A stretch of 64,000 nt of DNA, from NCBI GenBank assembly GCA_027001995.1, contig JALTLO010000022.1:816-64815 (forward strand). The letters run 5' to 3'. Source of the DNA: Planctomycetota bacterium (GTDB lineage Bacteria > Planctomycetota > GCA-002687715 > DRQF01). Position 1 is the stretch's first letter; every line of letters begins with the position of its first letter. Under the pieces are notes generated by a model. It was given only the letters and a program-made list of their open reading frames with translations, had not been told where the DNA came from and searched no databases. Of this stretch, positions 681-21,098 are shown piece by piece. The position numbers were made by a program, and so were the translations under genes.

Positions 681-2639
681 TTATCGGCTGTGGGCGAGCT
701 TCAAGGAAGAATAGATGGTTTCAGTCAACTCTGCGGCCCGATCCCAGTCACAAATCGCTTCGACTCTTTGCGCCAAGATTGACCGAGCCCGTTCGCGCAC
801 GTCCTTTTCCTTGATCGCCTGCAAAATAGCTTCACGGATGGAAACCCGATCACTGGGATCACAGTAATAAGGCGCATCGGCGAAATACTCAAATTCCGAC
901 GAACGGTTACTGACCACCATGGGACAAGCAGCAACAGCAGCTTCAAGATTGGCCAAGGCCGCACCCTCAGAGAAACTGGCAAGGACATGAACCGCAGCAG
1001 CCTTCATGGCCGAAGCCACAATAGCCTGGGGTTGTTTGCCCAAGAAATGAACTCTTGTGCTTGCCGTTTTCTGCACTGCCTCAAGATAATCAACCTCAAA
1101 AGCTGGCCCAATGAAGACAATGTCGAGATCTTGCTCTCGCAACGCTTCCACGACCATAAGCTGGTTCTTGCGACGATCTAAGGCACCAACACAGAGAACG
1201 AAGTCGCGAAGACCAAAGACCTTAATGAAAAGATCTTTCGTTGCCTCTCGAAACGGTTGGGCTTGGACGCCATGAGGAACAACACTGAAGGGAAACGACA
1301 TGGTTTTTGTCTGGCGATAAATGGTCGCCACTTCGTGTTGGCTTGTGACGCAAACGTGATCCACTTTCTTGAGCGCATCTGCAACGCGATCGAAGTAACC
1401 TGGATGGACCTCATTTGCTGCAAAACGGCTGAAATCCCCCAACTGCCCAAATCCACTCTCGTATTTTTGCCACATATCTTGCCGTTGATCCAAGGGCAAG
1501 CGTTGAATAGACATCAAGAAAGGACCAGCCCACATCAATTCACAAAGATCGAGGTAGATTGGCGACCATACGATGGGTGTTCCGGCCTGGTGAATGTGGT
1601 CAATTTGTTTCAACGACGTTTCAGGATTCCAAAGATTGAAACAATGGACCAAGTCATAGGACGAAGTATCCGGCCTGATGTCGTAGGTGACATCTACCTG
1701 GCAACCACGACGCTGCAATGCCTTACGTGTTTCATTCATGACAACAGCTGCCCCACCGTCATTGTCCACATCTTCTCGATAGGCGAACAAGACACGAAGC
1801 ACATAGGGATCACGTTCAGAAATCACAACTTCAGGGGCCGCTGGCTCTTGAGGCCGCCCCTTTTGCCCTTCGACCCAGTGCATAACCGCATCGTCCAGTT
1901 GACTATCTCGCAGCAACAAAGCCCCGGCTGCAATTCTCTCTCCTTGAGACCCTGGAAGAAAGGGAAGTACCATCACTTCGATCCCGGCGCTCAATGCACT
2001 TTCGATCCAGGGAGCTCCAACGTGGGTAATGAGCAAATCCGTACTCGCTAGAACTTCCTCAATAGCGCCAGAGACGAAACGAGGCACTTTGACTCCCAAG
2101 TCAAGAGACCATTGACAAAATGACTCCCGCAACGCAGATTCATCGACTAAGCCAGTGCGGTTGACACGTTCTTCTGGGTCAGGCCGCAAGTGCATCTGAA
2201 CAGAATTACCGACTGCCTCAGCCATGACCATGAGTCGTCTTTGAAGCGCAATCGAGCGGCGGGCCAGATCTCCGTGCAACTCACCATGGGTTATGGGGTG
2301 CGCTGGAGCATATAGAATCGTCAAAGGCGAACAGGCATTCCGATCCTTGGGTAAGACCTCACGGGGTGCAGCCGCTGCAAAGCGTAGGTCTGGAAACCCC
2401 GTCGTCCCGGAGTTGTTGGGGGGGCAGAACTGGTGGAGAGCGGCCTCATAGAGCTCTGGCATGATATCCTGATCTTCCCCACAATGAGGGCAATGATGCT
2501 TTCCCATGGGAACACCACAGACCAGATACTGTTGGCTCGAAAACGTGCCATCACAACGGCCGCAGCGAATCTCCAAGTCGGCACCTGTGCCCCTTGGGCT
2601 AAGTCGGGTGATGCTTGGCCGGAATTTTGTACAAGGCAT
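681..2639 (-). CDS. Glycosyltransferase (GT4-like) with N-terminal zinc-ribbon segment
   Basis: The GT1 C-terminal motif FSEGAALANLEAAVAACPMVVSN is present. The N-terminus carries Cys pairs (CGRCDG ... CPHCGED) resembling a zinc ribbon. The listed ORF starts at a GTG at 2702. The ATG at 2639 is preceded by GGGAG at -8, so I use 2639 as the start. Confidence 0.65.
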   Translation of the reverse strand: MPCTKFRPSITRLSPRGTGADLEIRCGRCDGTFSSQQYLVCGVPMGKHHCPHCGEDQDIMPELYEAALHQFCPPNNSGTTGFPDLRFAAAAPREVLPKDRNACSPLTILYAPAHPITHGELHGDLARRSIALQRRLMVMAEAVGNSVQMHLRPDPEERVNRTGLVDESALRESFCQWSLDLGVKVPRFVSGAIEEVLASTDLLITHVGAPWIESALSAGIEVMVLPFLPGSQGERIAAGALLLRDSQLDDAVMHWVEGQKGRPQEPAAPEVVISERDPYVLRVLFAYREDVDNDGGAAVVMNETRKALQRRGCQVDVTYDIRPDTSSYDLVHCFNLWNPETSLKQIDHIHQAGTPIVWSPIYLDLCELMWAGPFLMSIQRLPLDQRQDMWQKYESGFGQLGDFSRFAANEVHPGYFDRVADALKKVDHVCVTSQHEVATIYRQTKTMSFPFSVVPHGVQAQPFREATKDLFIKVFGLRDFVLCVGALDRRKNQLMVVEALREQDLDIVFIGPAFEVDYLEAVQKTASTRVHFLGKQPQAIVASAMKAAAVHVLASFSEGAALANLEAAVAACPMVVSNRSSEFEYFADAPYYCDPSDRVSIREAILQAIKEKDVRERARSILAQRVEAICDWDRAAELTETIYSSLKLAHSR

Positions 2640-2814
2640 GTTGATCGCTCCCACGGTTCTTCTTGCATAATTATCGACCGCTGGGAGCCGAGACTTGAAC
2701 ACCCAAATGGGTATTCAAGAGTATTGAGTCTATTTGAAGCAGACCTTAGCCCAACTCATTCACAATCGCCTTGCTGGGACAGCGTGGGTGAACTGCTCGG
2801 CTTAAACCATCAAG

Positions 2815-3777
2815 TCAGGAGGCAAGCTCACGGGTCTTCGTGAGAGACGACATAACTTCTTGGATCCCTTGTGGGACCGTCCTGGTGATCTCAAAACCCA
2901 GTGTTTTTTTGATTCGGTCAAAACTGACACGATAGTCGCGAGGATCTTCGTCTTTCTTGACGCGCTCGATCTCAAGCTCGCCCCCGACAGCGTCGCAAAT
3001 CATTGAAACCAACTGCCCCTTCTTATAGTTCTCGGAAGTATCACCGACGTTGAATACCTCTCCGCCCACGTCTTCAGCAGGAGCTTCCAAAGCCAACAGA
3101 ATAGCCCGGGCCGCATCATGAACATGAACATAAGGACGCCAGAATTGCTCGCCATAAACCACAAGCTCTCGGTCTTGCAAGAGATCTCGGGTGAACTCAT
3201 TCACCGTGAGGTCAAAGCGCATCCGCGGCGATGTGCCAAATAAAGTGGCAAACCGCAGAAGGATAGGCATACCTGTTGGTGGCAGACCATGCTCACACTT
3301 GGCCAAAAGATACTGCTCAAACTCGACTTTCGACCGAGCGTACAAAGAGACTGGCCGAAGCTCAGATTTTTCGTTCACATACCCCGTAGCGTCAAGCATG
3401 CGGCCGTAATTGCTGCAAGTCGAAGCAAAGAGAAAACGCTTCACATCAGCAGACACGGCTAAACTATGGAGCTGGATTGAGGCATCAAAATTGACTTCCT
3501 GAGCCAATTCTGGCTCTTTCGCACAGGCGGGATCACCAACAATTCCAGCCAAATGAACCACAGCGTCGATGCCGCACAAGGCGGAACCAACCACATCCAC
3601 ATCGCGAATGTCGCCTTCGATGAATTCGAATTCTTTGACTGTTGCAAGATCACTCAGATGATCCTGCGGACCATGAAGCAAACTATCCAACACGCGAACT
3701 TCATGCTGCTCATTCAAGAGGTGACGCGTGAGGACACTGCCCAAGTAACCTGCGCCGCCGGTGATCAATACGTGCAC
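2815..3777 (-). CDS. NAD-dependent epimerase/dehydratase (extended SDR), candidate nucleotide-sugar 4,6-dehydratase or epimerase of the nonulosonate pathway
   Basis: It has the Rossmann motif ITGGAGYLGS and the catalytic YxxxK (YARSK). The likely GTG start at 3777 overlaps the stop of the upstream gene by 1 nt, with GGGGGAAAG just upstream. The tool's TTG start is at 3792. Confidence 0.8.
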   Translation of the reverse strand: MHVLITGGAGYLGSVLTRHLLNEQHEVRVLDSLLHGPQDHLSDLATVKEFEFIEGDIRDVDVVGSALCGIDAVVHLAGIVGDPACAKEPELAQEVNFDASIQLHSLAVSADVKRFLFASTCSNYGRMLDATGYVNEKSELRPVSLYARSKVEFEQYLLAKCEHGLPPTGMPILLRFATLFGTSPRMRFDLTVNEFTRDLLQDRELVVYGEQFWRPYVHVHDAARAILLALEAPAEDVGGEVFNVGDTSENYKKGQLVSMICDAVGGELEIERVKKDEDPRDYRVSFDRIKKTLGFEITRTVPQGIQEVMSSLTKTRELAS

Positions 3778-4823
3778 TAGTCTTTCCCCCAACCATTTCT
3801 CGCTCGGCTTCGACCAAGATCGTTGATGGCTTTAGCCACTCTCTGGCGGCCGCCTCCATCAATAAATCTCCTGCCGGCTTTCGCCATGCCAATCCTGATG
3901 TTCGGGTCGCATGCTGTTGCAACCAGTCCCACCAATTCCCGGCGAAGGCAATCCTCTTCGGCGGAGGATACAGCTTGCGCCGCTCCAACCGCCACCAACG
4001 CTTCCGCGACATCTACTTCATGAGCTGCGGTGGGCACCAAAACACAGGGTGTTCCAGTCACCGCAAGTTCGTAAGCCGTTCGGCCAGCAGCCGAAACGAC
4101 AAGGTCAGCCGCTACCATGAGTATCGACAAATCCGGTACATTTTCTTGCACCCGAACCTGGGTTTTCATCCGAAAATGTGCGTTTTCTACCACTGTGGCC
4201 TTGGCGAAAGCCGGCCCCTGCACCACAGTAATATGCTCTCCTATACCATTTTCTACCAAAGAGTTAGCGACTATGGGAGTAAAACCCCGGGGGTCTGCCC
4301 CCCCCATGGTCACCAAAATCTCTTTGACCGGCCCGGTCTTGGCACGGCTATTTCGTTTCTTGTCGAAGTCAGAACCCAGAATTGCGTATCGGGGCCCCAA
4401 CAATTGTCGACCAATTTCCCCAGCATAGACATGATTGCTCTGAATGAGGCTGCCGTTCACCAAGAGATCCGCCCTCAAGGTTTTCTGCCCCAGGTCATCG
4501 AGAATCACAACAATGACCCCCATTTGCTGAAGCTGCTGTGTTATCCCTTCCGGTGTTTGGAGCAAGTCGAAAACAACCACATCAGGCTTCAGTGCTTGCA
4601 TGGCTGCGAGTTCCTCATGGGCAGAGGCTGATTCGCTCAACACAGTGACTTGAAAGTCCCGCCTACGAATGAAGTCATTCCCCGCCTGCTCCTCCCGCAT
4701 AAGAAAAAGAGACTCAGCTCCGTAGAACTTCATCTCTTCTGCCAAAGCCAGGCATCGAAACGCATGGCCCATGGCGACATGGAGTATTTGACCAGCATCA
4801 ACACGAAAGAGAATTCGAGTCAT
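3777..4823 (-). CDS. pseG: UDP-2,4-diacetamido-2,4,6-trideoxy-hexose hydrolase, PseG-like (GT-B fold, MurG-related)
   Basis: The N-terminus MTRILFRVDAGQILHVAMGHAFRCLALAEE matches the PseG-family signature (LFR-D, GxGHxxRcLaLA). The C-terminal half resembles a GT-B fold. The start is an ATG. Confidence 0.7.
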   Translation of the reverse strand: MTRILFRVDAGQILHVAMGHAFRCLALAEEMKFYGAESLFLMREEQAGNDFIRRRDFQVTVLSESASAHEELAAMQALKPDVVVFDLLQTPEGITQQLQQMGVIVVILDDLGQKTLRADLLVNGSLIQSNHVYAGEIGRQLLGPRYAILGSDFDKKRNSRAKTGPVKEILVTMGGADPRGFTPIVANSLVENGIGEHITVVQGPAFAKATVVENAHFRMKTQVRVQENVPDLSILMVAADLVVSAAGRTAYELAVTGTPCVLVPTAAHEVDVAEALVAVGAAQAVSSAEEDCLRRELVGLVATACDPNIRIGMAKAGRRFIDGGGRQRVAKAINDLGRSRARNGWGKD

Positions 4824-4867: not shown

Positions 4868-5635
4868 TTAGTTTCCAGAGCGCATTCTCTGCCAATCTTC
4901 AGTGGCGAAGTTTTGCTCAACGTCAGCATTGACCACGAACATTTCCGGCATTTCATGAGCCAAGGATAACACCTCGCCCAGGTTAAGAGGACTATTGCGC
5001 CGGCTCAATTCATCTTCAACTTCCCGGATCAACTCCAGGTCCACATCGGTGTCGATGGTCAGCCGCAAGTGATCTTGATGAAGATGATCGGGGGCTGCTA
5101 GACGTCCAAAGCAGAACTTCTCCGGATGTTTCGTGATATAGGCGTTGATGTGTTCACGTTCATTGGGACCCTTTGCCTCTTTTTCAGCACGGGCCAGAGC
5201 GGTTGCAGAAAATACTCCAACGTCAGCCCCTAGTGGCAAACCAGGCATCCAGGCGTAGTCCACGTTTTCCCGTTGTGCAAAAGACACAAGATATTCGATG
5301 ATCTTTGGATCAACCAAGGGATTGTCGCCGTATGCCACCACAACGGACTGGCAGCCAGAATTCTTCACCGCCTCTGATACGCGCCCCAAGACATCGTCGC
5401 ATGAGCCGCGAAAAACACGAATTCCCAAGCCTTTGGCAATCTCCACCAACTCGTCATCAGAAGACTTTGTTGTGGTGGCAAGAATCACCTCATCAAGGAA
5501 ACGGACCTGCTTCATCTGCCGAATAACACGCTCAATCAATGGTCGCCCGCCGATGTCGGCCAGAGCTTTTCCTGGCAGGCGAGTCGAGTCATAACGCGAG
5601 ACAATAACACCAGCGGTTGTTCCATTTTCAATCAT
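4868..5635 (-). CDS. CMP-nonulosonate cytidylyltransferase (CTP_transf_3 family, SpsF/PseF/NeuA-like)
   Basis: The N-terminus IVSRYDSTRLPGKALADIGGRPLIERVI resembles SpsF and acylneuraminate cytidylyltransferases. Its ATGA start overlaps the stop of the upstream synthase gene. Confidence 0.75.
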   Translation of the reverse strand: MIENGTTAGVIVSRYDSTRLPGKALADIGGRPLIERVIRQMKQVRFLDEVILATTTKSSDDELVEIAKGLGIRVFRGSCDDVLGRVSEAVKNSGCQSVVVAYGDNPLVDPKIIEYLVSFAQRENVDYAWMPGLPLGADVGVFSATALARAEKEAKGPNEREHINAYITKHPEKFCFGRLAAPDHLHQDHLRLTIDTDVDLELIREVEDELSRRNSPLNLGEVLSLAHEMPEMFVVNADVEQNFATEDWQRMRSGN

Positions 5636-6639
5636 GATGGGCTCCCTTGGCCAACGAGATCTAGGTTTAATTCTTGGTTCTTTTCAATGTCCACCTGAGC
5701 CACTTCCCCAACTACAAGAGCGCGCTGCCACGGTGCCAACTGAGCTTCTGGCCGAACACAAGACACCATGGCATCTGTGATCACTGTACCCTTGGCAATA
5801 GGACCGCTGGCGAAAAGCCCACGGCGATAAAGACGACTTTCCGCACGGTCCGGGCGGCTCTCGTCCACGCAAGCAGAACCCAAAGCGGCTTCAATCACAC
5901 GGATTCCTCGCACCATGCTGGCCAACTCTTCTGGGTCCTGGGACATAGCATGGTCCGGACCAGGCAGAGACTTGTCTGTAGTGAAATGTTTTTCAATGAC
6001 ACAAGCGCCCAAGGCAATGGCCCCGAGAACAACATCGTTGCCTAAGACATGATCACTCCAACCAACATGGGTCCCGAACTCTTCGGCCATCCACGTCATT
6101 GAGCGCAGATGAACATCTTTGGGGTCAGTGGGATACTTCGAAATACAATGCAGGAGAACAACATCATGACAGCCCCCTTCGGCCAGTGCTTCTAAAGCTT
6201 CATTGATCTCCCCATCAGTCGCCATGCCCGTAGACACAATGACTGGCTTACCCTTGGACGCCACATGACGCAAGAGAGGGAGATTCGTTAGGTCCATCGA
6301 AGCAATCTTGAAAGCCGGAGAGCCCAATTCGTCAAGCATGTCGACGCTCCCGGTGTCATAAGGCGTTGACAAGAAATGTACGCCCAACTCTCTGGCGCGA
6401 TTCGCCAGTGTCACATGGGCATCACGATCCAATTCACCATGGCGAATGACATCAAAATGGGCGACAGAGTCCAACACCAATTGATTGGCATGATAGGTCT
6501 GAAACTTAACAGCGTTTGCACCAGCGGCGGCTGCGGCCTCGATCATTTCAATGGCGAGATCCAACTTGCCTTCGTGGTTGAAGCCAATTTCTGCGATCAC
6601 GTAGGCTTGGCTGCCAATTTCAAATTCAGCAATATTCAT
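5632..6639 (-). CDS. N-acetylneuraminate/pseudaminate synthase family (NeuB/PseI-like) with C-terminal SAF domain
   Basis: The motif NIAEFEIGSQAYVIAEIGFNHEGKLDLAIEMIEAAAAAGANAVKFQTY is a NeuB signature, and the C-terminus has a SAF-like segment. The listed 432-aa ORF is over-extended. The in-frame ATG at 6639 (MNIAEFEIG) lies 20 nt downstream of the preceding gene's stop at 6659. Confidence 0.85.
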   Translation of the reverse strand: MNIAEFEIGSQAYVIAEIGFNHEGKLDLAIEMIEAAAAAGANAVKFQTYHANQLVLDSVAHFDVIRHGELDRDAHVTLANRARELGVHFLSTPYDTGSVDMLDELGSPAFKIASMDLTNLPLLRHVASKGKPVIVSTGMATDGEINEALEALAEGGCHDVVLLHCISKYPTDPKDVHLRSMTWMAEEFGTHVGWSDHVLGNDVVLGAIALGACVIEKHFTTDKSLPGPDHAMSQDPEELASMVRGIRVIEAALGSACVDESRPDRAESRLYRRGLFASGPIAKGTVITDAMVSCVRPEAQLAPWQRALVVGEVAQVDIEKNQELNLDLVGQGSPS

Positions 6640-6658
6640 AGTTATTTCTTTCGTGGGT

Positions 6659-7990
6659 TTATTCCCGCCACACGCCTCCTTGCCATTCCATGTTTTCCAT
6701 GTCCCAGTCGTCTGGAACCCATTCGGCGCCGTGCTTTTCAACGCCATGTCGGCAGTAGTCACATCCCCGCAATTGACAGCGACGATTGTCTTGATGAATC
6801 TTACGGATCTGATTGAGTTTCTTTGACTGCCAAGCGTCCGCGATTGTTGTCTCAGGGTTCTTGACAGTACGCCAGACACCGTCTTCCCCGCGCACCTTCT
6901 TTTCATTCGTACCAAGGTAGCGGCCGACAACTAAGTTCTGCTCTTCGTTGTGAGCGCCGGTGCAGGGCAAAAGAACACCGTTGGCTGAAAGAGTGAGTCT
7001 TTGGAAGGGATACTGGCAAGCCCAGTCGTCTAGAACCACATCATCCGGCAAGTCATCTTCGCGAAAATCCAAGAGTTCATTTACCGTAATCCAGCCCACA
7101 CCAGCTTTCTTCATGAAGTCATGATAGGCCTGGGGGTCTTTGGCGATAGCGGGATAAATCGTGTTTGTGCGGATCTGGGGCCGTGTCTTACCAGCGGCAT
7201 CTCGTGCGGCTACAAGTCGCTTGATGTTGCTGGCGACCACCTCGAAGGCATCATAGTCCGTGCCTTCTTTGTTCTTCGGCGTACGAATCTTGTTGTAGAC
7301 TGTGTTAAGACCATCAACAGAGAAGCTAATCCAGCTAGGCTCGGCTTCCACAAGAGCCCCTATCATCTCGTCGTCAAGAAGCTGGCCATGAGTGAGAGAG
7401 GTAATCTCCAAGATCCCCTTCTCCCGGGCATATTTCAAAACATCCGGAAAACGAACTTCTTTGCCATCTTCGTCCCGCCCGCGATACATGGATGATTCAC
7501 CACGCCAACTAAAGAGCATCGACGGAACATCCAAGCTGGCGCATTCATCGATGGCCGCCTTCACCACGGGCCAAGGCAACATCCTTTGGGCTCCAACGGC
7601 TGCATCCTGAAACTCCTCCGTCATGGTGTAGCACATGCTACAGCCCAAATTGCAAGTGCTCACAAGTTCAACAGTGACGGCCAGAGGCTGAGGACCGGGA
7701 TCAAACTCCTTGGCCCTACGATACCACTCAGACCGATAGTGATCGTAGCGCTGGCGTTCTTTGATTGTTGGAAATTGGGCGTGGAGGAAAGCCTCCTCGC
7801 GACTCATCGTATCGAAACTGAATTGAGAAGCATTCACTGGGACTTGGTCCTTGTGCCCCTGCCAGTCCTTCTTGAGCTGTTCTTCTCGCGGTCGAATCGA
7901 CGTTGTGCTGCGCGGCATTTCTTTCCCCAGTTGGCCCCAAGTAACCATGACCTCGATCTCATGAATGAGCCCCGAAAGGTGCATATTCAT
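6659..7990 (-). CDS. Radical SAM enzyme with C-terminal SPASM-like Cys cluster
   Basis: It has the CxxxCxxC motif (STCNLGCSMCYT) and a C-terminal Cys-rich tail (CQLRGCDYCRHG). Alternative starts lie at 7948 (MVTWGQ) and 7807. The first 14 codons of the listed ORF are made up of one copy of the CGATCTCATGAATGAG repeat. Confidence 0.75.
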   Translation of the reverse strand: MNMHLSGLIHEIEVMVTWGQLGKEMPRSTTSIRPREEQLKKDWQGHKDQVPVNASQFSFDTMSREEAFLHAQFPTIKERQRYDHYRSEWYRRAKEFDPGPQPLAVTVELVSTCNLGCSMCYTMTEEFQDAAVGAQRMLPWPVVKAAIDECASLDVPSMLFSWRGESSMYRGRDEDGKEVRFPDVLKYAREKGILEITSLTHGQLLDDEMIGALVEAEPSWISFSVDGLNTVYNKIRTPKNKEGTDYDAFEVVASNIKRLVAARDAAGKTRPQIRTNTIYPAIAKDPQAYHDFMKKAGVGWITVNELLDFREDDLPDDVVLDDWACQYPFQRLTLSANGVLLPCTGAHNEEQNLVVGRYLGTNEKKVRGEDGVWRTVKNPETTIADAWQSKKLNQIRKIHQDNRRCQLRGCDYCRHGVEKHGAEWVPDDWDMENMEWQGGVWRE

Positions 7991-8092
7991 GCGGTTCCAC
8001 GATTTGAGTTATCGGCGGCTTCAGCATGAATATTCAGTAGAATCGAGAAAGAAGATGAGGCGGCTGGAGAAAAGGCGTTTTGTGGTGCCAAA

Positions 8093-8721
8093 TTAGGCCA
8101 AATAGCGGATAACCTGAAAACACTCCACAGCCCTCAATCCGAAGGCGCGAGCATCCCTTTCATTCGCCAGGAGTATTTCTTCAACCAAAGCTGAAAGCCC
8201 TCTGCCGATCTCAGAATCATGGGCCAAGCAAGCTGCCTTTTTCTGCTCAAAGGACTCCGAAATATCTCGAATCAAGCGCCCGTCAAAAACCACAGATCCG
8301 GGATAGAGATTGCTACGATAGCAAAGAAACGTGGGTATATGCCGGCAAGCTGAAAGAGATGCACGGGCCAAGTTGTGATGATCAAGGTGAACATCCCCCA
8401 GCCAATGCCCATAGACAATATCCGGCTTCCATTGGTCGACTAAGCCCCGAATCGCCACAACCAAGGCCTCGTCACAAGCCAAATTGTTGGTTTCGAATTC
8501 TCCGCAGACAAGCTTCTCTACCCCCAGAATTTTGGCAGCAGCCTCTCCTTCGGCCCGGGCAACTCCCGCATCCCGAAGGGACTTCCCATTGAGACCGACG
8601 TAACCTGAATGGGTAGCCACAAACACGGCCACCTGGTCACCATCGGCTGTGTGTTTGGCCAAACTGCCACCGCAGCCAATCTCCACGTCGTCAAAATGTG
8701 CGCCAATGGCGAGTATTCTCA
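8093..8721 (-). CDS. PIG-L/LmbE family N-acetyl-sugar deacetylase
   Basis: MRILAIGAHFDDVEIGCGGSL matches the AHPDDE-type motif, and downstream His and Asp residues are present. The listed ORF carries a 22-aa N-terminal extension from a TTG start. The ATG (MRIL) is the likelier start. Confidence 0.8.
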
Positions 8722-8913
8722 TAGATTTCTCGTTGCTTTCCTCTTTGAGAATCGGGCTTTCAACCAAATAGCATGAATGAAAACCCAAGTTAGGAGCGAA
8801 TTTAGCCGACTAATTATGCATGGGGGCGACATGGAACACCCCGTTTGGGCTCATTCCTGGGCCACTGATATGTGCTATCCTACTGAGGATAAACAGCTTG
8901 TGAAGGAGCCCCT

Positions 8914-10062
8914 ATGTGGAAGGTACCCCTGTTTGACAGCAGCATCGGAGCTGAGGAGAAAGACGCCGTCTTGGCCGTTCTCGACTCTGGCTGGCTAACC
9001 ATGGGCCCCATTACCCAGGACTTTGAGCGGCGTTTCGCCGCTCACATCGGAGCCGAGCATGGCATCGCTGTCGCCAATGGCACCGCAGCTCTGCACATGA
9101 GTTTGGTGGCCTGTGACATCCAAGAAGGCGACGAAGTTATCTGTCCTTCCCTCACTTTCTCCGCCACGGCCAATGCAATTCTCCATGCGGGGGGTACGCC
9201 AATTTTTGCCGATGTCGCAAGCGAACTCAGCCTCAACATTTCTGCTGAGACGATCAAGCCCAAGATCTCGCCGATGACGAAAGCGATCTTAGTCGTCCAT
9301 TACGCTGGCTATCCATGCGACATGCCAGCCATCAATGCCCTGGCCGATGAGTATGGCCTCAAAGTTATCGAAGATGCAGCCCATGCCCCGGGTGCCCATT
9401 GGCAAGGCAAGTCTTGTGGAACTTTTGGTGCAACTGGCTGCTTTAGCTTCTACAGCAACAAGAACATGACCACCGGGGAAGGTGGCATGATTACTACCAA
9501 CGATGCTGAGCTGGCCGATCAATTGAGATTGCTACGCTCCCACGGCATGACGACGAGCACCAGCGATCGTCACAGCGGTAAGGCCCGTAGCTATGATGTA
9601 ACCACATTGGGATTCAACTACCGTATTGATGAGATTCGTAGTGCTATTGGTCGTTGCCAATTGGAGAAGCTCAAGGTGCGCAACCAAAAGCGAGCAACCC
9701 TCGACCAACTCTATCGCCAGCTTCTTACCGATGTAGAGGAAATCGTCGTCCCATTCGACTCAAATGTAGCATCAAATGGTTCCTCCTGCCACGTCATGTC
9801 AACAATTCTAAAAGCTGACTTAGGTGTTTCGGCTTTCCGTCAGTCGCTCAAGGAATCGGGTGTGCAAACAAGCCATCATTACCCGGCGATACACTTGCTT
9901 GCATGGTATCGCCAGACCTTCGGATACCAGGGTGGTCTATTGCCAATCACCGAGTCTGTATCGGAATCTCAGGTGACCCTTCCTCTCTATCCTCAGATGA
10001 CGGAAGAGATGGTAGAAATCGTTGTTGAGGCCATAAAATCTGCTTTGGTACGGAGTCATTAG
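8914..10062 (+). CDS. DegT/DnrJ/EryC1/StrS-family PLP-dependent sugar aminotransferase (PseC/LegC-like)
   Basis: The N-terminus (GPITQDFERRFA...AVANGTAALH) and the PLP-lysine region SFYSNKNMTTGEGG are present. An AAGGAG Shine-Dalgarno sits 6 nt upstream of the ATG. Confidence 0.85.
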   Translation: MWKVPLFDSSIGAEEKDAVLAVLDSGWLTMGPITQDFERRFAAHIGAEHGIAVANGTAALHMSLVACDIQEGDEVICPSLTFSATANAILHAGGTPIFADVASELSLNISAETIKPKISPMTKAILVVHYAGYPCDMPAINALADEYGLKVIEDAAHAPGAHWQGKSCGTFGATGCFSFYSNKNMTTGEGGMITTNDAELADQLRLLRSHGMTTSTSDRHSGKARSYDVTTLGFNYRIDEIRSAIGRCQLEKLKVRNQKRATLDQLYRQLLTDVEEIVVPFDSNVASNGSSCHVMSTILKADLGVSAFRQSLKESGVQTSHHYPAIHLLAWYRQTFGYQGGLLPITESVSESQVTLPLYPQMTEEMVEIVVEAIKSALVRSH

Positions 10063-11778
10063 ATGCGTATTTTAGGCCTCAATCACGACATGTTCATTTC
10101 GTCTGCCGCCTTGATAGAGGACGGAAACGTCATCGCCGCTGTGGCCGAAGAGAGACTCACGCGAGATAAGCGCACTCGGGCTTTTCCCCGCAAGTCTATC
10201 GCCTATTGCCTCGAAGAAGCAGGCATCAAGATCGAAGATGTGGACGCCATCGCAACGTCCTGGAACCCAGGCGCCTACTTTCGCAAATTCAATCCCCTGG
10301 TTTCAAACAAACGTCGACACATGGCTGAGCATCTCTTTGCGGTGCCTGACCATTTGATCGATATGTTCCCCCAAGGAGACCACACAGCTCCCTGGCTCGA
10401 ACTGCGTATCCCCATCATGGGCCACATGTGCCGCGTCTTCTATGTCACCCATCATAGTGCTCATGCAGCAAACGCCTATCATCTGTCGCCTTTCGAGGAT
10501 GCGGCCATCTTGACTGCTGATTCCCAAGGAGAATACGAATCCACAACATTCCAGCATGGGCAGGGCAGCACGATCAGTAAACTCCGTTCCATAGACTTCC
10601 CCCAATCTCTGGGAGCTTTCTACGCTACATTCACCGAATTTCTTGGCTTTCGACCCAACTCTGATGAGTGGAAAGTCATGGCCTTGGGTGCCTACGAAGA
10701 GGGCCACAACCCTTATGACGACATTCTAGAAGAGGTGGTATCCCTGGATCAAGACGGAGGGTACACCTTCGATTTATCCTTCTTCCAAGGATTCATGCCA
10801 GACAAACTTAATCTTTACACCCCTCACCTCATCGCGCGCTTTGGCGAGGCACGTCAAGCTGACGAAGAATTGTGCCAAAGGCATTTCCAGATCGCCGGCG
10901 CCGTCCAAAGACGAGCGGAAAATCTAGCATTTCACATGATGCGCCAACTCCAAAAGGAAACCGGCTCCAAGAATCTTTGCGTCGCCGGAGGGTTCTTCAT
11001 GAACAGTCTGCTCAACGGCAAGATTCGCGAAAACACGCCTTTCGAAAAGGTCTTCATCTCATCCTGCCCTGACGACTCTGGCAATGCCATTGGCGCTGCC
11101 CTTTATGCCATGAATGACATCTTGGGCAACGACACCCGGGTCCCACAGACTCACAACTATTTTGGACCAGCTTTTGGCAACACCGAGATCGCAGAAGCCA
11201 TTGAAAAGTATGGCCTGAAAGCTGAACCTTGCGAAAATATCGCTGAGTCATGCGCCCAACTCCTTGAGGAGGGAGCGCTGATTGGCTGGTTCCAAGGAAG
11301 AATGGAATTGGGCCAAAGAGCCCTTGGTTGCCGATCGATCTTGGCCGACCCCCGGCAAGCTTCCACCCGGGATCAAGTGAACTTGGCAGTAAAATACCGC
11401 GAGAAGTTTCGACCATTCGCACCTGCAATTCTAAAGGAAGAAGCAGCCAAGTGGTTCAACATCGATTCTGATGTGGAGGTCCCGTTCATGGAACAAGTCC
11501 ACATGGTGCGGCCAGAAAAACGAGATGCCATCCCTGCTTGTGTGCATGCTGATGGAACAGGACGGCTTCAAACCGTGGACGCCGAAACAAACCTCTTGTT
11601 TCATCAGCTGATTTCTGCATTTCGCAAGAGGACTGGGGTTCCGGTCTTGCTCAATACATCTTTTAACCTCAATGGCGAGCCTGTTGTTTCGAATCCCACT
11701 GACGCCATTCGGACGTTCTTCTCTTGTGGCTTAGACGTCTTGGCTATGGGTAACTATTTAATCAAGAAGAACGGATGA
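10063..11778 (+). CDS. NodU/CmcH-family carbamoyltransferase
   Basis: The N-terminus MRILGLNHDMFISSAALIEDGNVIAAVAEERLTRDKRTRAFP is typical of the family, and the protein is 571 aa. It is translationally coupled to the upstream gene (TAGATG). Confidence 0.85.
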   Translation: MRILGLNHDMFISSAALIEDGNVIAAVAEERLTRDKRTRAFPRKSIAYCLEEAGIKIEDVDAIATSWNPGAYFRKFNPLVSNKRRHMAEHLFAVPDHLIDMFPQGDHTAPWLELRIPIMGHMCRVFYVTHHSAHAANAYHLSPFEDAAILTADSQGEYESTTFQHGQGSTISKLRSIDFPQSLGAFYATFTEFLGFRPNSDEWKVMALGAYEEGHNPYDDILEEVVSLDQDGGYTFDLSFFQGFMPDKLNLYTPHLIARFGEARQADEELCQRHFQIAGAVQRRAENLAFHMMRQLQKETGSKNLCVAGGFFMNSLLNGKIRENTPFEKVFISSCPDDSGNAIGAALYAMNDILGNDTRVPQTHNYFGPAFGNTEIAEAIEKYGLKAEPCENIAESCAQLLEEGALIGWFQGRMELGQRALGCRSILADPRQASTRDQVNLAVKYREKFRPFAPAILKEEAAKWFNIDSDVEVPFMEQVHMVRPEKRDAIPACVHADGTGRLQTVDAETNLLFHQLISAFRKRTGVPVLLNTSFNLNGEPVVSNPTDAIRTFFSCGLDVLAMGNYLIKKNG

Positions 11779-12473
11779 AAACGGTCTGCATTCATCAACC
11801 CGATTTTGCTCCTTGGTTAGGATTCTTTGACCGGCTCATAGACGCCGATGTCTACGTTGTCTTCGACGATGCGCAATTTCTACGAAGAGGATGGCACCAC
11901 CGGGATAAGATTATAGGACCCCAAGGGACCCAGTGGCTTACGGTCCCCGTCCTCAAAAAAGGCCGCTACCACCAAGAGATACGAGACGTCAAAATCGACG
12001 AAAGCACGAACTGGCGGCGAAAACACTTGCAAACATTAACCAGTGTCTATGGTAGTCGCCCTGGCTTTGAATCGACTCACCATCAAATCACGGAGATATA
12101 CGATCGCCAGCATGAGCGCTTGATCGACCTCAACATGGATCTCATTTCTTGGCTCCTGAGAGTTCTTGACATCGAAGTTCAGATCTGCATGAGCTCTGAA
12201 TTCGGCCTCAAATCTAAGTCTACGGATCGTTTAGTCGAGTTAACACAAGCTTTGGGGGGCACGACGTACATTTCAGGTTTGGGTGCCAAGAACTACTTAG
12301 ACGAAGAGGCATTTCGCCAGCAAAACATCAAAGTACGCTGGCAAGAGTTCCTCCACCCCACTTGGGATCAAGGCCAAAGTACGTTTCTTTCTATGCTTTC
12401 CACACTAGACACCTTGTACCAAGGTGCAACTCAGACGAAGATGCTGTCCAGAGAGGGGCAGGACGAAAGTTGA
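11775..12473 (+). CDS. WbqC-like family protein (function unknown, found in O-antigen/nonulosonate clusters)
   Basis: The N-terminus MKTVCIHQPDFAPWLGFFDRL matches the WbqC-like signature (IHQPxxxPWLGxF). It overlaps the upstream gene's stop as ATGA. Confidence 0.6.
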   Translation: MKTVCIHQPDFAPWLGFFDRLIDADVYVVFDDAQFLRRGWHHRDKIIGPQGTQWLTVPVLKKGRYHQEIRDVKIDESTNWRRKHLQTLTSVYGSRPGFESTHHQITEIYDRQHERLIDLNMDLISWLLRVLDIEVQICMSSEFGLKSKSTDRLVELTQALGGTTYISGLGAKNYLDEEAFRQQNIKVRWQEFLHPTWDQGQSTFLSMLSTLDTLYQGATQTKMLSREGQDES

Positions 12474-12500
12474 ACAGCATCGTTAATCGGAGCCGAGCCC

Positions 12501-13469
12501 TTGACCATCGAAATCGTCAAACAAACGGACCACGACGGGACTAGTCTCGCCCGGGTCATAGCGCGACTTCGGCGCTTGCCCCATGATGAGATAGTAGGAT
12601 TAGATCAACATCTTCGCCGCCTTGCTCTGGAGCGGGATCTAAAGAAAAACTTGAACGACCCATCGGTCCACATATGGGTCGGCCGTGAAAAAGGCGAAGA
12701 CACGGGCATCGCAGTGCTCAAACATCTCACTTGGGATAGTGAGATCTTGGGGGTGAGCTGCGCTTCCATTGCAATTTATCTTACCGATTGCGATCAATCT
12801 TCCCGCCAAGCTACAGCCTCTCTCCTCATTCACCAGGCCCTACTCCGCTGTCGTACAGAGGACATTCACTTCGTTTCAACAAAAGTCTTCAGCGACCAAT
12901 TCGCTCAAATACACGCCCTTGAAGATCTCAATTTCCGTCTCATGGATGCAGAAATGATCTTGCGCTACCACGGCGAACGAGACGAGATTCAAGACGTCCC
13001 GGAAATCAACTTCGTCAAAAAACAGAAGGAAGAAGTCCCCGGGTTGTCCACCATGGGCAAGCTCTTTCACATGAGCCGCTTCTTCGCCGACCCTAAGTTA
13101 GGCCCCGAACGGGCAGACCGACTCTGGCAAGAAAGCGTTACTGATAGCTGTCGTGGCCATGCAGATAGTTTCCTCGTGGCTATGGAAGACAACAAGGCAC
13201 AAGGTTTCGTCACCTTCATGGACAACCCCGATTTCTTCGGTTTGGGGGGTCCATCCATACGCAACTTTTTCCATGTGGGTATCGCCCAAGAAGCCCAAGG
13301 CAAAGGCCTGGGCACTGCCCTCATTCATGCTGCCCTCCGTGACAGCAGCGCCTTTGACCACATCATGGTCGAAACCCAATCCCGTAACACAGGCGCCTTA
13401 GCTCTCTACCAAAAATGCGGTTTCCGCATCCTCGGCTCCCGCTTCGCCTTCCATTTGTGGATGGCTTAG
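12501..13469 (+). CDS. GNAT-family N-acetyltransferase (two GNAT-like halves; PseH-like candidate)
   Basis: The C-terminus HVGIAQEAQGKGLGTALIHAAL...ALYQKCGF is an acetyl-CoA-binding motif. The start is a TTG, and the exact start is uncertain. Confidence 0.7.
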   Translation: MTIEIVKQTDHDGTSLARVIARLRRLPHDEIVGLDQHLRRLALERDLKKNLNDPSVHIWVGREKGEDTGIAVLKHLTWDSEILGVSCASIAIYLTDCDQSSRQATASLLIHQALLRCRTEDIHFVSTKVFSDQFAQIHALEDLNFRLMDAEMILRYHGERDEIQDVPEINFVKKQKEEVPGLSTMGKLFHMSRFFADPKLGPERADRLWQESVTDSCRGHADSFLVAMEDNKAQGFVTFMDNPDFFGLGGPSIRNFFHVGIAQEAQGKGLGTALIHAALRDSSAFDHIMVETQSRNTGALALYQKCGFRILGSRFAFHLWMA

Positions 13470-13488
13470 CCCGCTTGCGACTGTCAAC

Positions 13489-13504
13489 GGCATGGATATT
13501 GCAT
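13489..13504 (+). promoter_or_regulatory. Candidate sigma-54 (-24/-12) promoter upstream of hpf
   Basis: CGGCAT-ggata-TTGCA, with correct GG-N10-GC spacing, lies 31 nt upstream of the hpf ATG. Confidence 0.4.
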
Positions 13505-13534
13505 GGTATTGGGTAGACAAACTGGAGATCAATC

Positions 13535-13870
13535 ATGACTTATCAACCGCAAGTAAGTTGGCGCAATTTGGCTCCCCACAAAGGTGTACTCCATGAAATC
13601 GACGACGCCATGGCAAAACTCGAAGAAAGATTCGGCCCACCTTCGAGTATGCGCATTGTCGCTTCCCCCGGTAAGACCGGTCACGGGGACCACTTGGCTA
13701 TGAACTTCAAGCTCGAAATGCACCTTCAAGGCCAGGATTTTATGGTTACACATGACCACAGGAGTAAAGATGACTCAGGATCACCGGTCTCTGGAATTCG
13801 ACACGCATTCGAAATCCTTAAGAACCAAGTGACCCACAACTTGGATCGAAGACGGGATATCTCCCGCTAA
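13535..13870 (+). CDS. hpf: Ribosome hibernation promoting factor / RaiA (S30AE, sigma-54 modulation protein family), short form
   Basis: The 111-aa product shows the alpha/beta pattern and the LAKLEERF and HAFEILKNQV segments typical of HPF/YfiA. Confidence 0.7.
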   Translation: MTYQPQVSWRNLAPHKGVLHEIDDAMAKLEERFGPPSSMRIVASPGKTGHGDHLAMNFKLEMHLQGQDFMVTHDHRSKDDSGSPVSGIRHAFEILKNQVTHNLDRRRDISR

Positions 13871-14136
13871 GAAGTCACAACCAGAGGATTCAATGAGCCC
13901 CGCCGCTGAGCTTTGTTCCGCTTAGCAACAACTTGATGGATCTTGGCTTTCTTCAGCCAGTTTCGTTGATGGCCAAAAGTCGGGGAATCTCACCCAGGGG
14001 GCCCATTCGAGAAAAGTTTATCCGACTTTTTTTGGTGCCAATGTGGATTCATGCCGAGTCCAGCAAGTCTCTGCCTCAAATGTTCATCTCGTCTGTCCCC
14101 AGCACGGGGACCCAAAGTAACAGCGCGGGCCCATGA

Positions 14137-14658
14137 ATGAGCCTGGCAAATAAAGGAAGAAAAATGACCGATTCAACAAAGGAAAACTCATGGGAGCGAC
14201 TCACAGCGAAGGACATGATGCAAAGCGGCATGGTCACTGTTTCTTTGGAAGCGACCGCCAGCGAAATCGAGTGTGTATTGGTAGAAAACAAGGTCTCTGG
14301 CGTACCGGTCCGGGACAGCGGCGACAAGATTGTCGGCCTTGTTTCCTGGCGCGACGTCATGGGATATTTCGCTGAGAACAGCCACAGCGATCCTCACAAT
14401 CCCCATGCATTCTATCGTTTCATCGATTCTGAGACTCTTGAACTCGGTAGCGAAATTGAGATCCCCGTTGATGAGACGGTGACAGCAAGGGATGTCATGA
14501 GCACAGAACTTCTCACAACCCCGGCCAATTCATCTCTCAAAGTCGTGGCCAAACTCATGACCGATCACGGTGTCCACCGTGTCCTCGTGACCAACCCATT
14601 TGGCGACATCATCGGTATTCTCAGCACACTTGATATCCTGCGTTCCTTGGCTAGCTAA
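14137..14658 (+). CDS. CBS-domain pair protein
   Basis: Two CBS motifs are present: one at DMMQSGMVTVS...VSGVPV (region 4-60) and one at DVMSTELLTTP...VHRVLV. Confidence 0.8.
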   Translation: MSLANKGRKMTDSTKENSWERLTAKDMMQSGMVTVSLEATASEIECVLVENKVSGVPVRDSGDKIVGLVSWRDVMGYFAENSHSDPHNPHAFYRFIDSETLELGSEIEIPVDETVTARDVMSTELLTTPANSSLKVVAKLMTDHGVHRVLVTNPFGDIIGILSTLDILRSLAS

Positions 14659-14760
14659 GCCACCTTTGGAGAGACGCCACCCAAGGCGATTTTGATAAGT
14701 CGCAACCCTGGATTCGAGTTTCTTGACCACGACATCGAAGGAGCAAGGGGCCAGGTATAG

Positions 14761-14796
14761 CGCAATAAGAAAAGAGGCGACTTTTCTTATTGCGCG
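14761..14796. repeat. Perfect 15-bp inverted repeat (GCGCAATAAGAAAAG-aggcga-CTTTTCTTATTGCGC)
   Basis: This is read directly from the sequence. No U-tract follows it on either strand. Confidence 0.6.
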
Positions 14797-14965
14797 GTGC
14801 GAAAAATGACTCACTCAATTCATCTTGATCCCCACCCAATCAGAGAGAAGGATCTACCTGTTGATGATGTCTCGCAATCTACGGAATTATCTTTAGCTTA
14901 AGATCCTTTCGTCGCGGGTTTCAGCACCTTCGCTGTTCAACGGAATTGGAAAACTTGGAGAATAC

Positions 14966-16571
14966 GATGATGATGAGCCGTACCTTCGCATGCTTCTTAG
15001 CACTTGCCTTGGTTCTCGGATTTTCAGGCTCTGCACTGAGCCAGGACAGAGATGACTTGGCGCGAGAAGTGCGCCGCCTCAACAAGAAACTCAATGCAAT
15101 CAGCACCGTTCAAGAACGGCTTGTTGGTGAGAACGAGCATTTACGCAAGGACAATGCTGAACTGCGTAGTTTGATCAACAACGAACGAGTTCCAGTGAGC
15201 GAACTGGAAACCTCGTTAAATGCTCTGGGCGACACAATCGAAAACGCTGGAACGGTAGTAGAATCAACTGCCAACCCCATCACCCTTTCTGGGCAATTCC
15301 GGTTTCGTGCCGGTTTCATTTCGAACCGTGATTTCGGCGCAAGCCCGAATTCGAATGGTGGCGACTTGGGAGATGACAGCGGTACTTTCGTTGATGCTCG
15401 GATCAACGTGGCCTTCGACTTCGCCCTGGCCCGCAATGTAACAACTCACTTCGAATTGATTTCCTCTGGACTTTTCGAGAACGGAAACACAAACCAAAAC
15501 ACGGGAACGTTGGCTGAAGTCGATCTTTATCAAGGTTACGTCCATTTCGACAAGCTTTTCGGAACCGACGAGATTGGACTCAGAGCAGGGCGACAAGAGA
15601 TTGCACTTGGCAACGAGTTGTTCTTTGGCAACAATAGTTTCTTCGGTGGTGAGACATTTGACGCAACCCTTGTCTGGTGGGCGCAGAAAGAATGGAGCCT
15701 CATTTTCGTATGGGCAAAATTCGACATCGCTCAAGCCAGCAATCCAAGTGGCCAACCTTACCCCACCTACTTAGCTGGCCATGGGTTCGATGACGACGAG
15801 GCTTACGCCCTCTACTTCACCCTCAACACCATCGAGAATCACGTTCTTGACCTCTACTACTTCTTCCTCAACATAAACAACGTTGCGGGAGCATCTACGG
15901 GAACTTTGGGCAACGGATTCCCACCAGACACATTTGCTCACGTCCTTGGCATTCGCTTGGCCGGAGACCACGCCAGCATCGCTGAAGGGTTGGACTACAA
16001 CATTGAATTCGCCTACGAGACTGGGGACATCAATAGTGCCGCCATTGACTTGGAAGGGTTTATCGTCGAAGCAGAGTTAGGCGTTACCTTCAACGCCGAC
16101 ACTAAATTCCGGGTGTTTGGACGCTTCGTTTATGCGAACGGCGCCAGCGGCAACAATTCTGGATTTGTTCCTTTGTTTCCTGATCGTCAGGAGCAAGTCA
16201 ATTGGGACGACCACACTGCCAGTCGGGCTCGTTGGGGTTTGATGAACATCATTCCTTTGACCAACGTAATCTCCGGACAAATCGGATTCACCTTCCGTCC
16301 CGCAGAGGATTGGATCTTCGGTATGACCGTTCTCGGAGCTTGGCGTGACGAAGATGTCATCACGACGGATGGTAATTCCAAAGGTGGTATTGGTTGGGAA
16401 ATCGATGCTTTCGCGGACTACCGTTATAGCACCGACACCACGATCAGCTTGGGTCTCGGGGTCTTCCTTCCTACAGAAGGCGCGCCGCTTGAGAATTCCC
16501 CCATTAGCGCTGGCAATAACGAAGACGAAGCCGCATTCCTCTTCTATCTCCAGTCACTGACAACCTTCTAG
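14966..16571 (+). CDS. Outer-membrane beta-barrel protein (porin-like) with N-terminal periplasmic coiled coil
   Basis: It has a signal peptide (MMMSRTFACFLALALVLGFSGSALSQ) and a heptad coiled coil (LNKKLNAIS...LRKDNAELRSL). The rest alternates hydrophobic, Gly/Asn/Asp-rich beta strands, and it ends in a terminal Phe (LQSLTTF). GGAG lies 8 nt upstream of the ATG. Confidence 0.6.
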
Positions 16572-16596
16572 CCTCAATCCATTTCGATCGACTGAA

Positions 16597-16628
16597 AGAG
16601 CACGGCGATAGCCGTGCTCTTTTTTTTG
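16597..16628 (+). terminator. Rho-independent terminator
   Basis: The hairpin AGAGCACGGC-gata-GCCGTGCTCT is followed by T8. Confidence 0.75.
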
Positions 16629-16966
16629 CTAGATGTCGCCCCACAACAAACGACACTCCTCGAATAAAAACCCACGACCACTGGGTATCCAAAAGATTAT
16701 TGGTGAGATTCCTCAATTCTCCTCAACAGCCATGCAAAGGGCTTCCGACAAGGGCTACAAGGAAAAAATGCCGTCAGGACAAATCGTTTCCTCGTGAAAC
16801 AGGACTTCCGGATAGGCACCAACGGGCCCAGATGCGATCGCGGCAGAACCGAACGCTGCGGAGAAATGGATAGAACCCAAGAAAAACTGCTTTAAGTGCA
16901 GGGGGCATCCTCCCGTGAGGATCAGTTCATAGGGCTCGATTTAATTGGAATAGTTTGGAGAGAAGG

Positions 16967-18562: not shown

Positions 18563-18596
18563 TCTCAAGTCCAACTTGAAGTCACCGACCCAAAAA

Positions 18597-18630
18597 GGGC
18601 CATCGCTTCGAAGCGATGGCCCTATTTTCG
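18597..18630. terminator. Hairpin terminator between convergent genes
   Basis: The stem GGGCCATCGCTTCGAAGCGATGGCCC (perfect 11-bp arms) is followed by TATTTTCG. It could serve both convergent genes. Confidence 0.6.
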
Positions 18631-18666
18631 TTGCCAAATGTCATGGCAATCTGTCGAGAACAAGAA

Positions 18667-20994: not shown

Positions 20995-21045
20995 TATTGT
21001 CTTCCTTGTGTAGATGGACCCAAAAGCAGGTCGCACCTGCCACAA

Positions 21046-21061: not shown

Positions 21062-21098
21062 TCAAGGAACTGTTGTGAAATAAGGACTTATGCCTATT

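Follow-up and report, generated by a model that had tools for sequence, protein, structure and literature searches.

A gene on the reverse strand of a 64,000-nucleotide (nt) stretch of a Planctomycetota genome (GenBank assembly GCA_027001995.1, contig JALTLO010000022.1, positions 816 to 64,815; the whole stretch is called the window below) encodes a radical SAM (S-adenosyl-L-methionine) protein with a four-cysteine Twitch domain, which, judging from its sequence and genomic surroundings, very probably tailors a sugar of a nonulosonic acid (NulO) pathway. Its likeliest substrate is the NulO itself, either free or activated with cytidine monophosphate (CMP), or else the hexosamine precursor of that NulO. 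For the chemistry we tentatively propose a two-electron oxidation of a sugar C–H/OH to a ketone, by analogy with BtrN, a reading to which we give slightly less than an even chance. The open reading frame (ORF) spans positions 6659 to 7990 and codes for at most 443 amino acids (aa) from the ATG at 7990. It is a real gene, with 308 database homologs, the best of which is 87% identical (E-value 1.7e-262). Residue numbers below follow the 443-aa reading and positions are those of the window.

Radical SAM core and Twitch domain

The initial annotation of this DNA, made from the letters themselves, had called a radical SAM enzyme with one CxxxCxxC cluster. The protein does contain a radical SAM core above the Pfam gathering score, and its motif reads C113-N-L-G-C117-S-M-C120, the three cysteines being the predicted ligands of the SAM-binding [4Fe-4S] cluster. 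Alignment of 95 orthologs (the window and 94 loci) showed that exactly seven cysteines are invariant in all 95, namely C113, C117, and C120 together with C325, C343, C410, and C413. Other cysteines vary: C150 is present in 66 of the 95 sequences, C405 in 22, and a cysteine at position 107 in 55. The C-terminal third of the window protein holds Cys325, 343, 405, 410, and 413, and the invariant ones are arranged as C325-X12-G-X4-C343 and C410-X2-C413.

A SPASM domain would have a seven-cysteine pattern, CX9-15GX4C...CX2CX5CX3C...C, of which the family conserves four C-terminal cysteines only. As no cysteine follows C413, either in the window protein or as a conserved position among the 95 orthologs, the motif for the second SPASM cluster is absent, and the Pfam SPASM model gives 21.2 bits, slightly short of the 21.5 set as its gathering score. 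The Twitch domain is defined by a CX9-15GX4C beta-hairpin with further cysteines for a single auxiliary [4Fe-4S] cluster (PMC9012708). Both cysteine pairs of our protein align with the corresponding segments of BtrN, and the C-terminal region is, on this evidence, a four-cysteine Twitch domain predicted to bind one auxiliary [4Fe-4S] cluster, not a full SPASM domain. The region had been described as Cys-rich and SPASM-like; the auxiliary-cluster domain and its putative Fe–S cysteines are found on alignment, while the full SPASM assignment does not stand.

Prediction of the structure and its comparison with known enzymes, which had been proposed as a check, agree with this assignment. The AlphaFold2 (AF2) model, built from 62 sequences, is confident (predicted local distance difference test score (pLDDT) 92.6, predicted template modelling score 0.93). 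Using Foldseek against the Protein Data Bank (PDB), we found that BtrN is the best match (E-value 9.3e-10, template modelling score 0.70 normalised to BtrN), closely followed by SuiB, SkfB, CteB, and anSME. There were 72 PDB matches at an E-value of 0.001 or below, and radical SAM enzymes made up 50 of 50 among the matches listed. A PDB search with the single sequence returned SkfB only, at an E-value of 0.9, and no solved structure was found in the PDB searches that is a close sequence relative of the protein.

BtrN is the 2-deoxy-scyllo-inosamine dehydrogenase of butirosin biosynthesis (PDB 4M7T and 4M7S) and, like the window protein, combines a radical SAM core with a Twitch domain. When the family profile was aligned with the PDB sequences, C325, C343, C410, and C413 corresponded one-to-one to BtrN C169, C187, C232, and C235, which we take to be the four ligands of the BtrN Twitch cluster. 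The auxiliary cluster of BtrN has four Cys ligands, and the enzyme carries out a two-electron alcohol-to-ketone oxidation of an aminocyclitol (PMC9012708). Its substrate is an amino-carbohydrate from a pathway with a DegT-family aminotransferase, and the window operon also has a DegT gene. The two proteins differ in that ours is about 170 residues longer, with a conserved 75-aa N-terminal extension, a Trp-rich C-terminal tail and, as judged by eye, an insertion of about 25 residues inside the Twitch domain. With 14% identity, a profile E-value of 0.2, and a NulO context in place of the aminoglycoside (2-deoxystreptamine) pathway, the window protein is outside the BtrN family and works like BtrN at most.

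The N-terminal extension is specific to the family and carries the motif PVN..Q.SFD...R..F...Y..YR.EWYRR, in which Y85, R86, and W89 are invariant. In the AF2 model it forms short strands and two helices and is mainly helical. Part of this motif (R86, W89, and P102) is also common to the paralog clade described below.

The initial annotation saw no cobalamin-binding region and doubted a class B methylase, and we concur. Cobalamin-dependent C-methylation of the sugar by a radical SAM enzyme could be imagined from the separate B12-binding radical SAM genes in related loci, but the Pfam scan finds no B12-binding domain (PF02310) in the window protein and its best structural relatives are Twitch/SPASM enzymes, which leaves this alternative with a negligible probability.

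Conserved linkage to NeuB

The gene context in the window is, from its domain content, a cluster for biosynthesis of a NulO of the pseudaminic or legionaminic type. All six members of the NulO set are present, i.e. NeuB, CMP-transferase, nucleotide-sugar hydrolase, aminotransferase, N-acyltransferase, and a short-chain dehydrogenase/reductase (SDR). PseG scores above its equivalog cut-off, and NeuB, PseC, and PseF score under theirs, the NeuB protein being under both the NeuB and the PseI cut-offs.

To follow this context we surveyed 98 loci with tblastn, using the window's neighbour genes as probes. NeuB is in the same locus in 69 of the 98. The figure is 44 of 47 where both flanks extend to 3 kb or more and 23 of 24 where they extend to 6 kb or more, and NeuB lies within 3 kb of the radical SAM gene in 64 of the 69 loci that have it. 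The linkage spans Planctomycetota, Chloroflexota, Desulfobacterota, Alphaproteobacteria including Pelagibacteraceae, Parcubacteria, Stygiobacter, and Nitrospirae. The gene directly 5′ of the radical SAM gene is most commonly a carbamoyltransferase (22 loci, with spacers of typically 24–99 nt), PIG-L (12), or WbqC (9), and the gene directly 3′ is most commonly NeuB (12) or a formyltransferase (7). One block found repeatedly reads (SDR-CBS/nucleotidyltransferase)-DegT-PIG-L-WbqC-GNAT-carbamoyltransferase-radical SAM-NeuB-CMP-transferase-PseG-like, often followed by shorter Twitch/SPASM radical SAM paralogs and B12-binding radical SAM genes. In other loci the radical SAM gene is accompanied only by NeuB, CMP-transferase, and SDRs of the PseB-like or RmlD-like kind, or else by an iron-containing alcohol dehydrogenase and DegT. 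The partner that stays constant is thus NeuB, with the genes for carbamoylation and deacetylation frequent yet optional.

An obligate coupling to the carbamoyltransferase was considered and rejected, as many loci with NeuB and the radical SAM gene lack it. Replacement of a canonical step by the radical SAM enzyme (e.g. the 4,6-dehydratase) was also rejected, since the window and related loci hold a complete canonical set including a PseB-like or other SDR.

The prominence of the carbamoyltransferase raises the alternative of oxidative cross-linking or C–C/C–N bond formation, for example cyclisation of an N-acyl or carbamoyl group onto the sugar, or chain extension. SPASM/Twitch enzymes commonly form cross-links, and the NodU-type carbamoyltransferase is the commonest gene directly upstream, but many NeuB loci with the radical SAM gene do without one (of the 24 loci flanked by 6 kb or more, 10 have it), and we regard such a reaction as rather improbable.

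Two further neighbours recur. A metallo-beta-lactamase (MBL)-fold protein of about 445 aa is present in 16 loci, often directly adjacent to the radical SAM gene, and a xylose-isomerase-like TIM barrel of 310 aa lies 3′ of it in 11 loci, with a 111-nt gap in at least five. The TIM barrel fits a keto-sugar product of the radical SAM enzyme. Located 3′ of NeuB in many related NulO loci are Twitch/SPASM radical SAM paralogs of shorter length (about 350 aa; one or two per locus), B12-binding radical SAM genes, and formyltransferases, and some of the clusters have three to five radical SAM genes.

The same survey bears on whether the protein could be a peptide or protein maturase, either anSME-like or a SPASM enzyme of ribosomally synthesised and post-translationally modified peptides, standing beside sugar genes by chance. 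Homologs are labelled 'AslB sulfatase maturation enzyme' by some sources, and SuiB, SkfB, CteB, and anSME are strong fold matches. The SPASM maturases (anSME, SuiB, CteB, and PqqE) and the Twitch sactisynthase SkfB have the fold and the first auxiliary half, CX9-15GX4C, in common with our family, but the latter lacks the CX2CX5CX3C...C part, an RRE-like domain, and a precursor peptide, and belongs to a sugar-biosynthesis context. The window protein is far under every curated maturase cut-off (30.6 bits against 349 for the anSME model TIGR03942, and 21.9 against 484 for NF010308), no RRE/PqqD-like leader-binding domain was matched in it by Pfam or NCBIfam, and no conserved small ORF that could encode a precursor peptide is found near the gene in the window and its close relatives. 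The sole same-strand intergenic ORF (7987 to 8091) codes for 34 aa with no cysteine, in a region where close relatives differ by indels of lengths not divisible by three. As no RRE domain or precursor peptide was found, and NeuB linkage holds at 94% across phyla, tailoring of a NulO sugar is the most likely role and a maturase is very improbable. The initial annotation had likewise preferred a sugar pathway over a peptide one and had seen no precursor peptide; the NeuB linkage, the paralog fusions below, the BtrN fold match, and the lack of a conserved small ORF all agree with it.

Family, paralogs, and gene fusions

When 1.84 billion cluster representatives were searched exhaustively with HMMER, 26 matched at an E-value of 1e-30 or below, and the orthologs collapse to essentially one full-length cluster at 50% identity, suggesting that the family is tight and strongly constrained. 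A metagenome scan added 176 further relatives, of which 80 loci were kept. The orthologs are 47–87% identical to the window protein and come from at least nine phyla, with Planctomycetota, Chloroflexota, Desulfobacterota, Rhodospirillales, Hyphomicrobiales, Pelagibacteraceae (these three being Alphaproteobacteria), Parcubacteria, Stygiobacter (Ignavibacteria-like), and Nitrospirae among the taxa. One carrier is cultured, the isolate Desulfobacter latus AcRS2 (Desulfobacterota). In NCBIfam no model scores above its cut-off for the window protein or its paralogs, and for the window protein none even approaches it. The family is, by these profile scores, uncharacterised and outside the curated models.

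A tier of paralogs, 26–34% identical to the window protein, has the same seven cysteines and part of the N-terminal motif. In several of them the radical SAM/Twitch module is fused to another enzyme: to NeuB with its SAF domain in P0139 (L101:906-3017; L numbers denote the surveyed loci), to a CTP_transf_3 cytidylyltransferase in P0224 (L102:249-2003), to an SDR epimerase/dehydratase in P0140, to a methyltransferase in P0153, and to a D-2-hydroxyacid dehydrogenase in P0172. Since the product of NeuB is the substrate of the CMP-transferase, the first two fusions suggest that the clade most likely acts on free NulO. The NeuB fusion P0139 adjoins genes for an acyl carrier protein, an AMP-binding ligase, and an aminoglycoside-type N-acetyltransferase.

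A comparable arrangement is found in the 'spiro-SPASM protein' model TIGR04321, which independently couples a cytidylyltransferase-like N-terminus to a radical SAM-like/SPASM C-terminus in one protein. The window CMP-transferase matches its N-terminal half and the radical SAM paralogs match its C-terminal half, with scores of 27–63 bits against a cut-off of 250; the window radical SAM protein itself is above an E-value of 0.01, and the two halves are separate genes here.

Proposed reaction and alternatives

A BtrN-like two-electron oxidation is favoured because the Twitch cluster is predicted to be fully Cys-ligated and no eighth cysteine is conserved that could act as H-donor. In this reaction the CX3CX2C [4Fe-4S] cluster would cleave SAM reductively, and the resulting 5′-deoxyadenosyl radical would take a hydrogen from a hydroxyl-bearing carbon of the sugar. 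The substrate radical would then go to the ketone, passing an electron to the Twitch [4Fe-4S] cluster with its four cysteines, as in BtrN. The keto-sugar could subsequently be transaminated by DegT, reduced from the other face by an SDR, or isomerised by the TIM barrel, which would give an aminated, epimerised, or deoxygenated NulO variant. The initial annotation had proposed an epimerase, a dehydratase, or a C–C bond-forming enzyme acting on the sugar; the sugar pathway is retained, but its list left out dehydrogenation, which the BtrN-type site indicates most directly.

Several points weigh against this proposal. The family is known from sequence and predicted structure alone, and the convergence of the four cysteines on an auxiliary cluster is predicted from the alignment. 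The match to BtrN stands at the 14% identity and E-value of 0.2 given above, and by fold score the peptide maturases SuiB, SkfB, CteB, and anSME are nearly equal to it. Twitch enzymes with an auxiliary cluster also catalyse redox-neutral reactions, and the SDR and aminotransferase of the operon could make and use a 4-keto sugar without any radical SAM enzyme. Furthermore, the fusions belong to paralogs, and P0139 and P0224 each come from a single contig.

The enzyme could instead be a radical epimerase, abstracting hydrogen from the NulO or its precursor at a stereocentre that is not activated (e.g. C4, C7, or C8) and returning it to the opposite face. The diversity of natural NulOs is largely stereochemical, the Twitch architecture and sugar context would be in common, and the five invariant Tyr residues among the 95 orthologs are possible H-donors. 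HygY, NeoN, and SpeY are reportedly radical SAM epimerases or dehydrogenases acting on aminoglycoside sugars, with HygY and NeoN said to epimerise them and HygY (as a Twitch epimerase) and SpeY described as Twitch enzymes; by these descriptions they too tailor amino sugars at unactivated carbons. However, known sugar and peptide radical SAM epimerases use a Cys thiol as H-donor, and HygY and NeoN, as described, need such a catalytic cysteine, while our family conserves no cysteine beyond the seven cluster ligands. A NeoN/HygY-type epimerase is therefore disfavoured, and we consider epimerisation unlikely.

We likewise give a low probability to a radical lyase, i.e. a dehydratase or deaminase like AprD4 and DesII, or a decarboxylase like BlsE, which would remove OH, NH2, or CO2. 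The sugar operon with its deacetylase and aminotransferase, and the reductase-like SDR/RmlD partners in some loci, would suit such an enzyme, and BlsE is reportedly of the Twitch type with a sugar acid as substrate. AprD4 and DesII, on the other hand, are not known to have a Twitch auxiliary cluster, a partner reductase does not occur consistently across the loci, and the AprD4 and BlsE models of NCBIfam give no match to our protein at an E-value of 0.01 or below.

Start codon and upstream region

Most homologs are about 419 aa long, and alignment places their N-terminus about seven residues ahead of a conserved IRPREE. We aligned the DNA of the start region from the window with that of the two closest planctomycete loci, L001 and L002. 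In L002 an in-frame TGA directly abuts the ATG equivalent to window 7918 (TGA-ATG), and the upstream ATG opens an ORF of eight codons only, ending at that TGA. A TGGGGA block 6–11 nt 5′ of this ATG is kept in all three planctomycete loci. Compared with L001 and L002, the window has a 45-nt insertion (about 7921–7965) between a conserved CCGCATGAAYATGCA block and ATG 7918. From the homolog lengths, the TGA of L002, and the conserved TGGGGA, ATG 7918 (M25) is the best-supported start, with 7990 and 7948 as possible alternatives in this genome. A start at 7807 (M62) was rejected because it would cut off V52 and Q56, which are invariant or nearly so. The initial annotation had rightly found the start ambiguous; of its candidates 7990, 7948, and 7807 the last one falls, and the best candidate, 7918, was missing from them.

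Between PIG-L and the radical SAM gene, a perfect palindrome, TGAATATTCA, is located at 8027–8036 inside a block at about 8021–8046 (GATTCT.CTGAATATTCATGC), which is kept in the window and the two closest planctomycete loci with diverging flanks. The palindrome could be an operator or an internal promoter element. Promoter and terminator scans around the radical SAM gene stayed at chance level, and the GC profile shows no island signature.

Neighbouring genes in the window

The features are listed in Table 1. As the initial annotation had noted, the radical SAM gene lies between the synthase and PIG-L. A longer reading of NeuB (5632–6930 on the reverse strand, from a TTG at 6930), which would overlap the radical SAM gene by about 270 nt, was rejected as a spurious extension and the overlap as an artefact, because homology begins at ATG 6639.

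Table 1. Features of the radical SAM gene and its neighbours in the window, and surveyed loci with recurrent neighbours
Feature	Position or loci	Strand	Evidence or remark
Twitch radical SAM coding sequence	6659..7918	-	419 aa from best-supported ATG 7918
Family-specific N-terminal extension, residues 25-100 (443-aa numbering)	7691..7918	-	alignments, AF2 model
Radical SAM core (Pfam PF04055, residues 109-240)	7271..7666	-	E 3e-11, 44.2 bits vs gathering 29.5
CX3CX2C motif, C113/C117/C120	7631..7654	-	direct reading; invariant in 95/95 orthologs
Twitch (truncated SPASM) domain, residues 322-416	6743..7027	-	NCBIfam twitch model, invariant Cys, BtrN alignment
Spacer, radical SAM stop to NeuB ATG	6640..6658	-	19 nt, purine-rich
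Nonulosonic acid synthase (NeuB family + SAF domain)	5632..6639	-	PF03102, E 6e-84
CMP-sugar cytidylyltransferase (CTP_transf_3)	4868..5635	-	start overlaps NeuB stop
PseG-like nucleotide-sugar hydrolase	3777..4823	-	TIGR03590, 159 bits vs cut-off 153.55
SDR nucleotide-sugar epimerase/dehydrogenase, GalE-like	2815..3792	-	nearest solved structure 6vo6, E 1e-49
GT4 glycosyltransferase, long N-terminal region	681..2702	-	conserved at operon end in planctomycete loci
PIG-L family de-N-acetylase	8093..8722	-	likely start M23, ATG 8722; ORF to TTG 8788; directly upstream of radical SAM gene
DegT/PseC-like sugar aminotransferase	8914..10062	+	divergent transcription
NodU/CmcH-type carbamoyltransferase	10063..11778	+	Pfam scan
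WbqC-family protein	11775..12473	+	Pfam scan, AF2 model
GNAT N-acyltransferase with N-terminal extension	12501..13469	+	domain search
Loci with MBL-fold neighbour	L045 (2768-4105), L056, L067, L068, L072-L086		
Loci with TIM-barrel neighbour	L021-L027, L031, L032, L038; e.g. L024:5099-6031		
Loci with extra radical SAM genes	L009, L010, L011, L014, L017, L021-L025, L076, L089 and others; e.g. L009:5457-6848, L009:7001-8035		

The SDR of the operon is GalE-like and not of the PseB/FlaA1 type. Its nearest solved structure, 6vo6, has the title 'putative sugar-nucleotide epimerase/dehydratase' and is presumably C. jejuni Cj1427, an NDP-heptose C4 dehydrogenase. In that case, this operon may make a NulO that is not 9-deoxy.

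The AF2 model of the WbqC protein is confident (pLDDT 92), and the family has an invariant N-terminal H-Q-P-D motif. Searched against the PDB, the model gave no significant fold match, the weak best being class I aminoacyl-tRNA synthetase or nucleotidyltransferase-like, and our literature search found no functional study of WbqC. In related loci WbqC and PIG-L very often occur as a pair.

Downstream of the sugar cluster are two tandem paralogous Alginate_exp-type outer-membrane porins with coiled-coil N-termini (14946–16571 and 16955–18562, forward strand), a quinol-type nitric oxide reductase (NorB/COX1; 18667–21057, reverse strand), and a GAF/sigma-54 activator resembling NorR (21163–22701, forward strand). 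The window, here at 10063–22701, represents the same genome as the metagenome-assembled genome GCA_015485455.1 (contig WFTN01000397.1, our L099). The start of that contig is a little way upstream of the gene for the carbamoyltransferase, and the radical SAM gene is therefore outside the GCA_015485455.1 record, which is probably why the best match of the radical SAM protein is 87% identical and that of WbqC 100%.

Implications for nonulosonic acid biosynthesis

Nonulosonic acids (nine-carbon sugars comprising sialic, pseudaminic, and legionaminic acids and their relatives) decorate flagella, capsules, lipopolysaccharide, and S-layers, and govern recognition by phages and the immune system. To our knowledge, the described steps of their biosynthesis are all polar or depend on nicotinamide adenine dinucleotide or pyridoxal phosphate chemistry. 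A full-text literature search gave no paper that connects the biosynthesis of nonulosonic, pseudaminic, or legionaminic acid, or sialic acid synthase, with radical SAM enzymes, with one exception: Campylobacter fetus has two phase-variable, uncharacterised radical SAM genes of the 'MoaA/NifB/PqqE/SkfB family', which are listed among SDR, methyltransferase, and formyltransferase genes (tags CFT03427_1545-1558; PMC6321876). This pair may belong to the same NulO-associated clade, here in a cultured pathogen. The new aspect of our proposal is tailoring of a sugar by a Twitch radical SAM enzyme in a pathway without described radical chemistry. It is quite conceivable, if somewhat short of probable, that a whole clade of Twitch radical SAM enzymes, comprising the 419-aa family, the shorter paralogs, and the fusions with NeuB and CMP-transferase, is devoted to sialic-acid-like sugars.

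The joint occurrence of the radical SAM gene and NeuB over at least nine phyla indicates a tailoring reaction that is not yet known, and probably new NulO structures as well, and the question is testable because a cultured carrier exists in D. latus AcRS2. The family would also offer a tractable new class of sugar substrates for the study of the roles of Twitch auxiliary clusters. If the proposal is true, the product may be an undescribed NulO, e.g. one with a keto group, an extra amino group, or a cyclised carbamoyl group, or a C-methylated one where B12-binding radical SAM partners are present. Radical C–H functionalisation would then be a widespread and unrecognised route to new NulO structures on environmental bacteria, with SAR11-type Pelagibacteraceae, Planctomycetota, and candidate-phylum Parcubacteria among its carriers.

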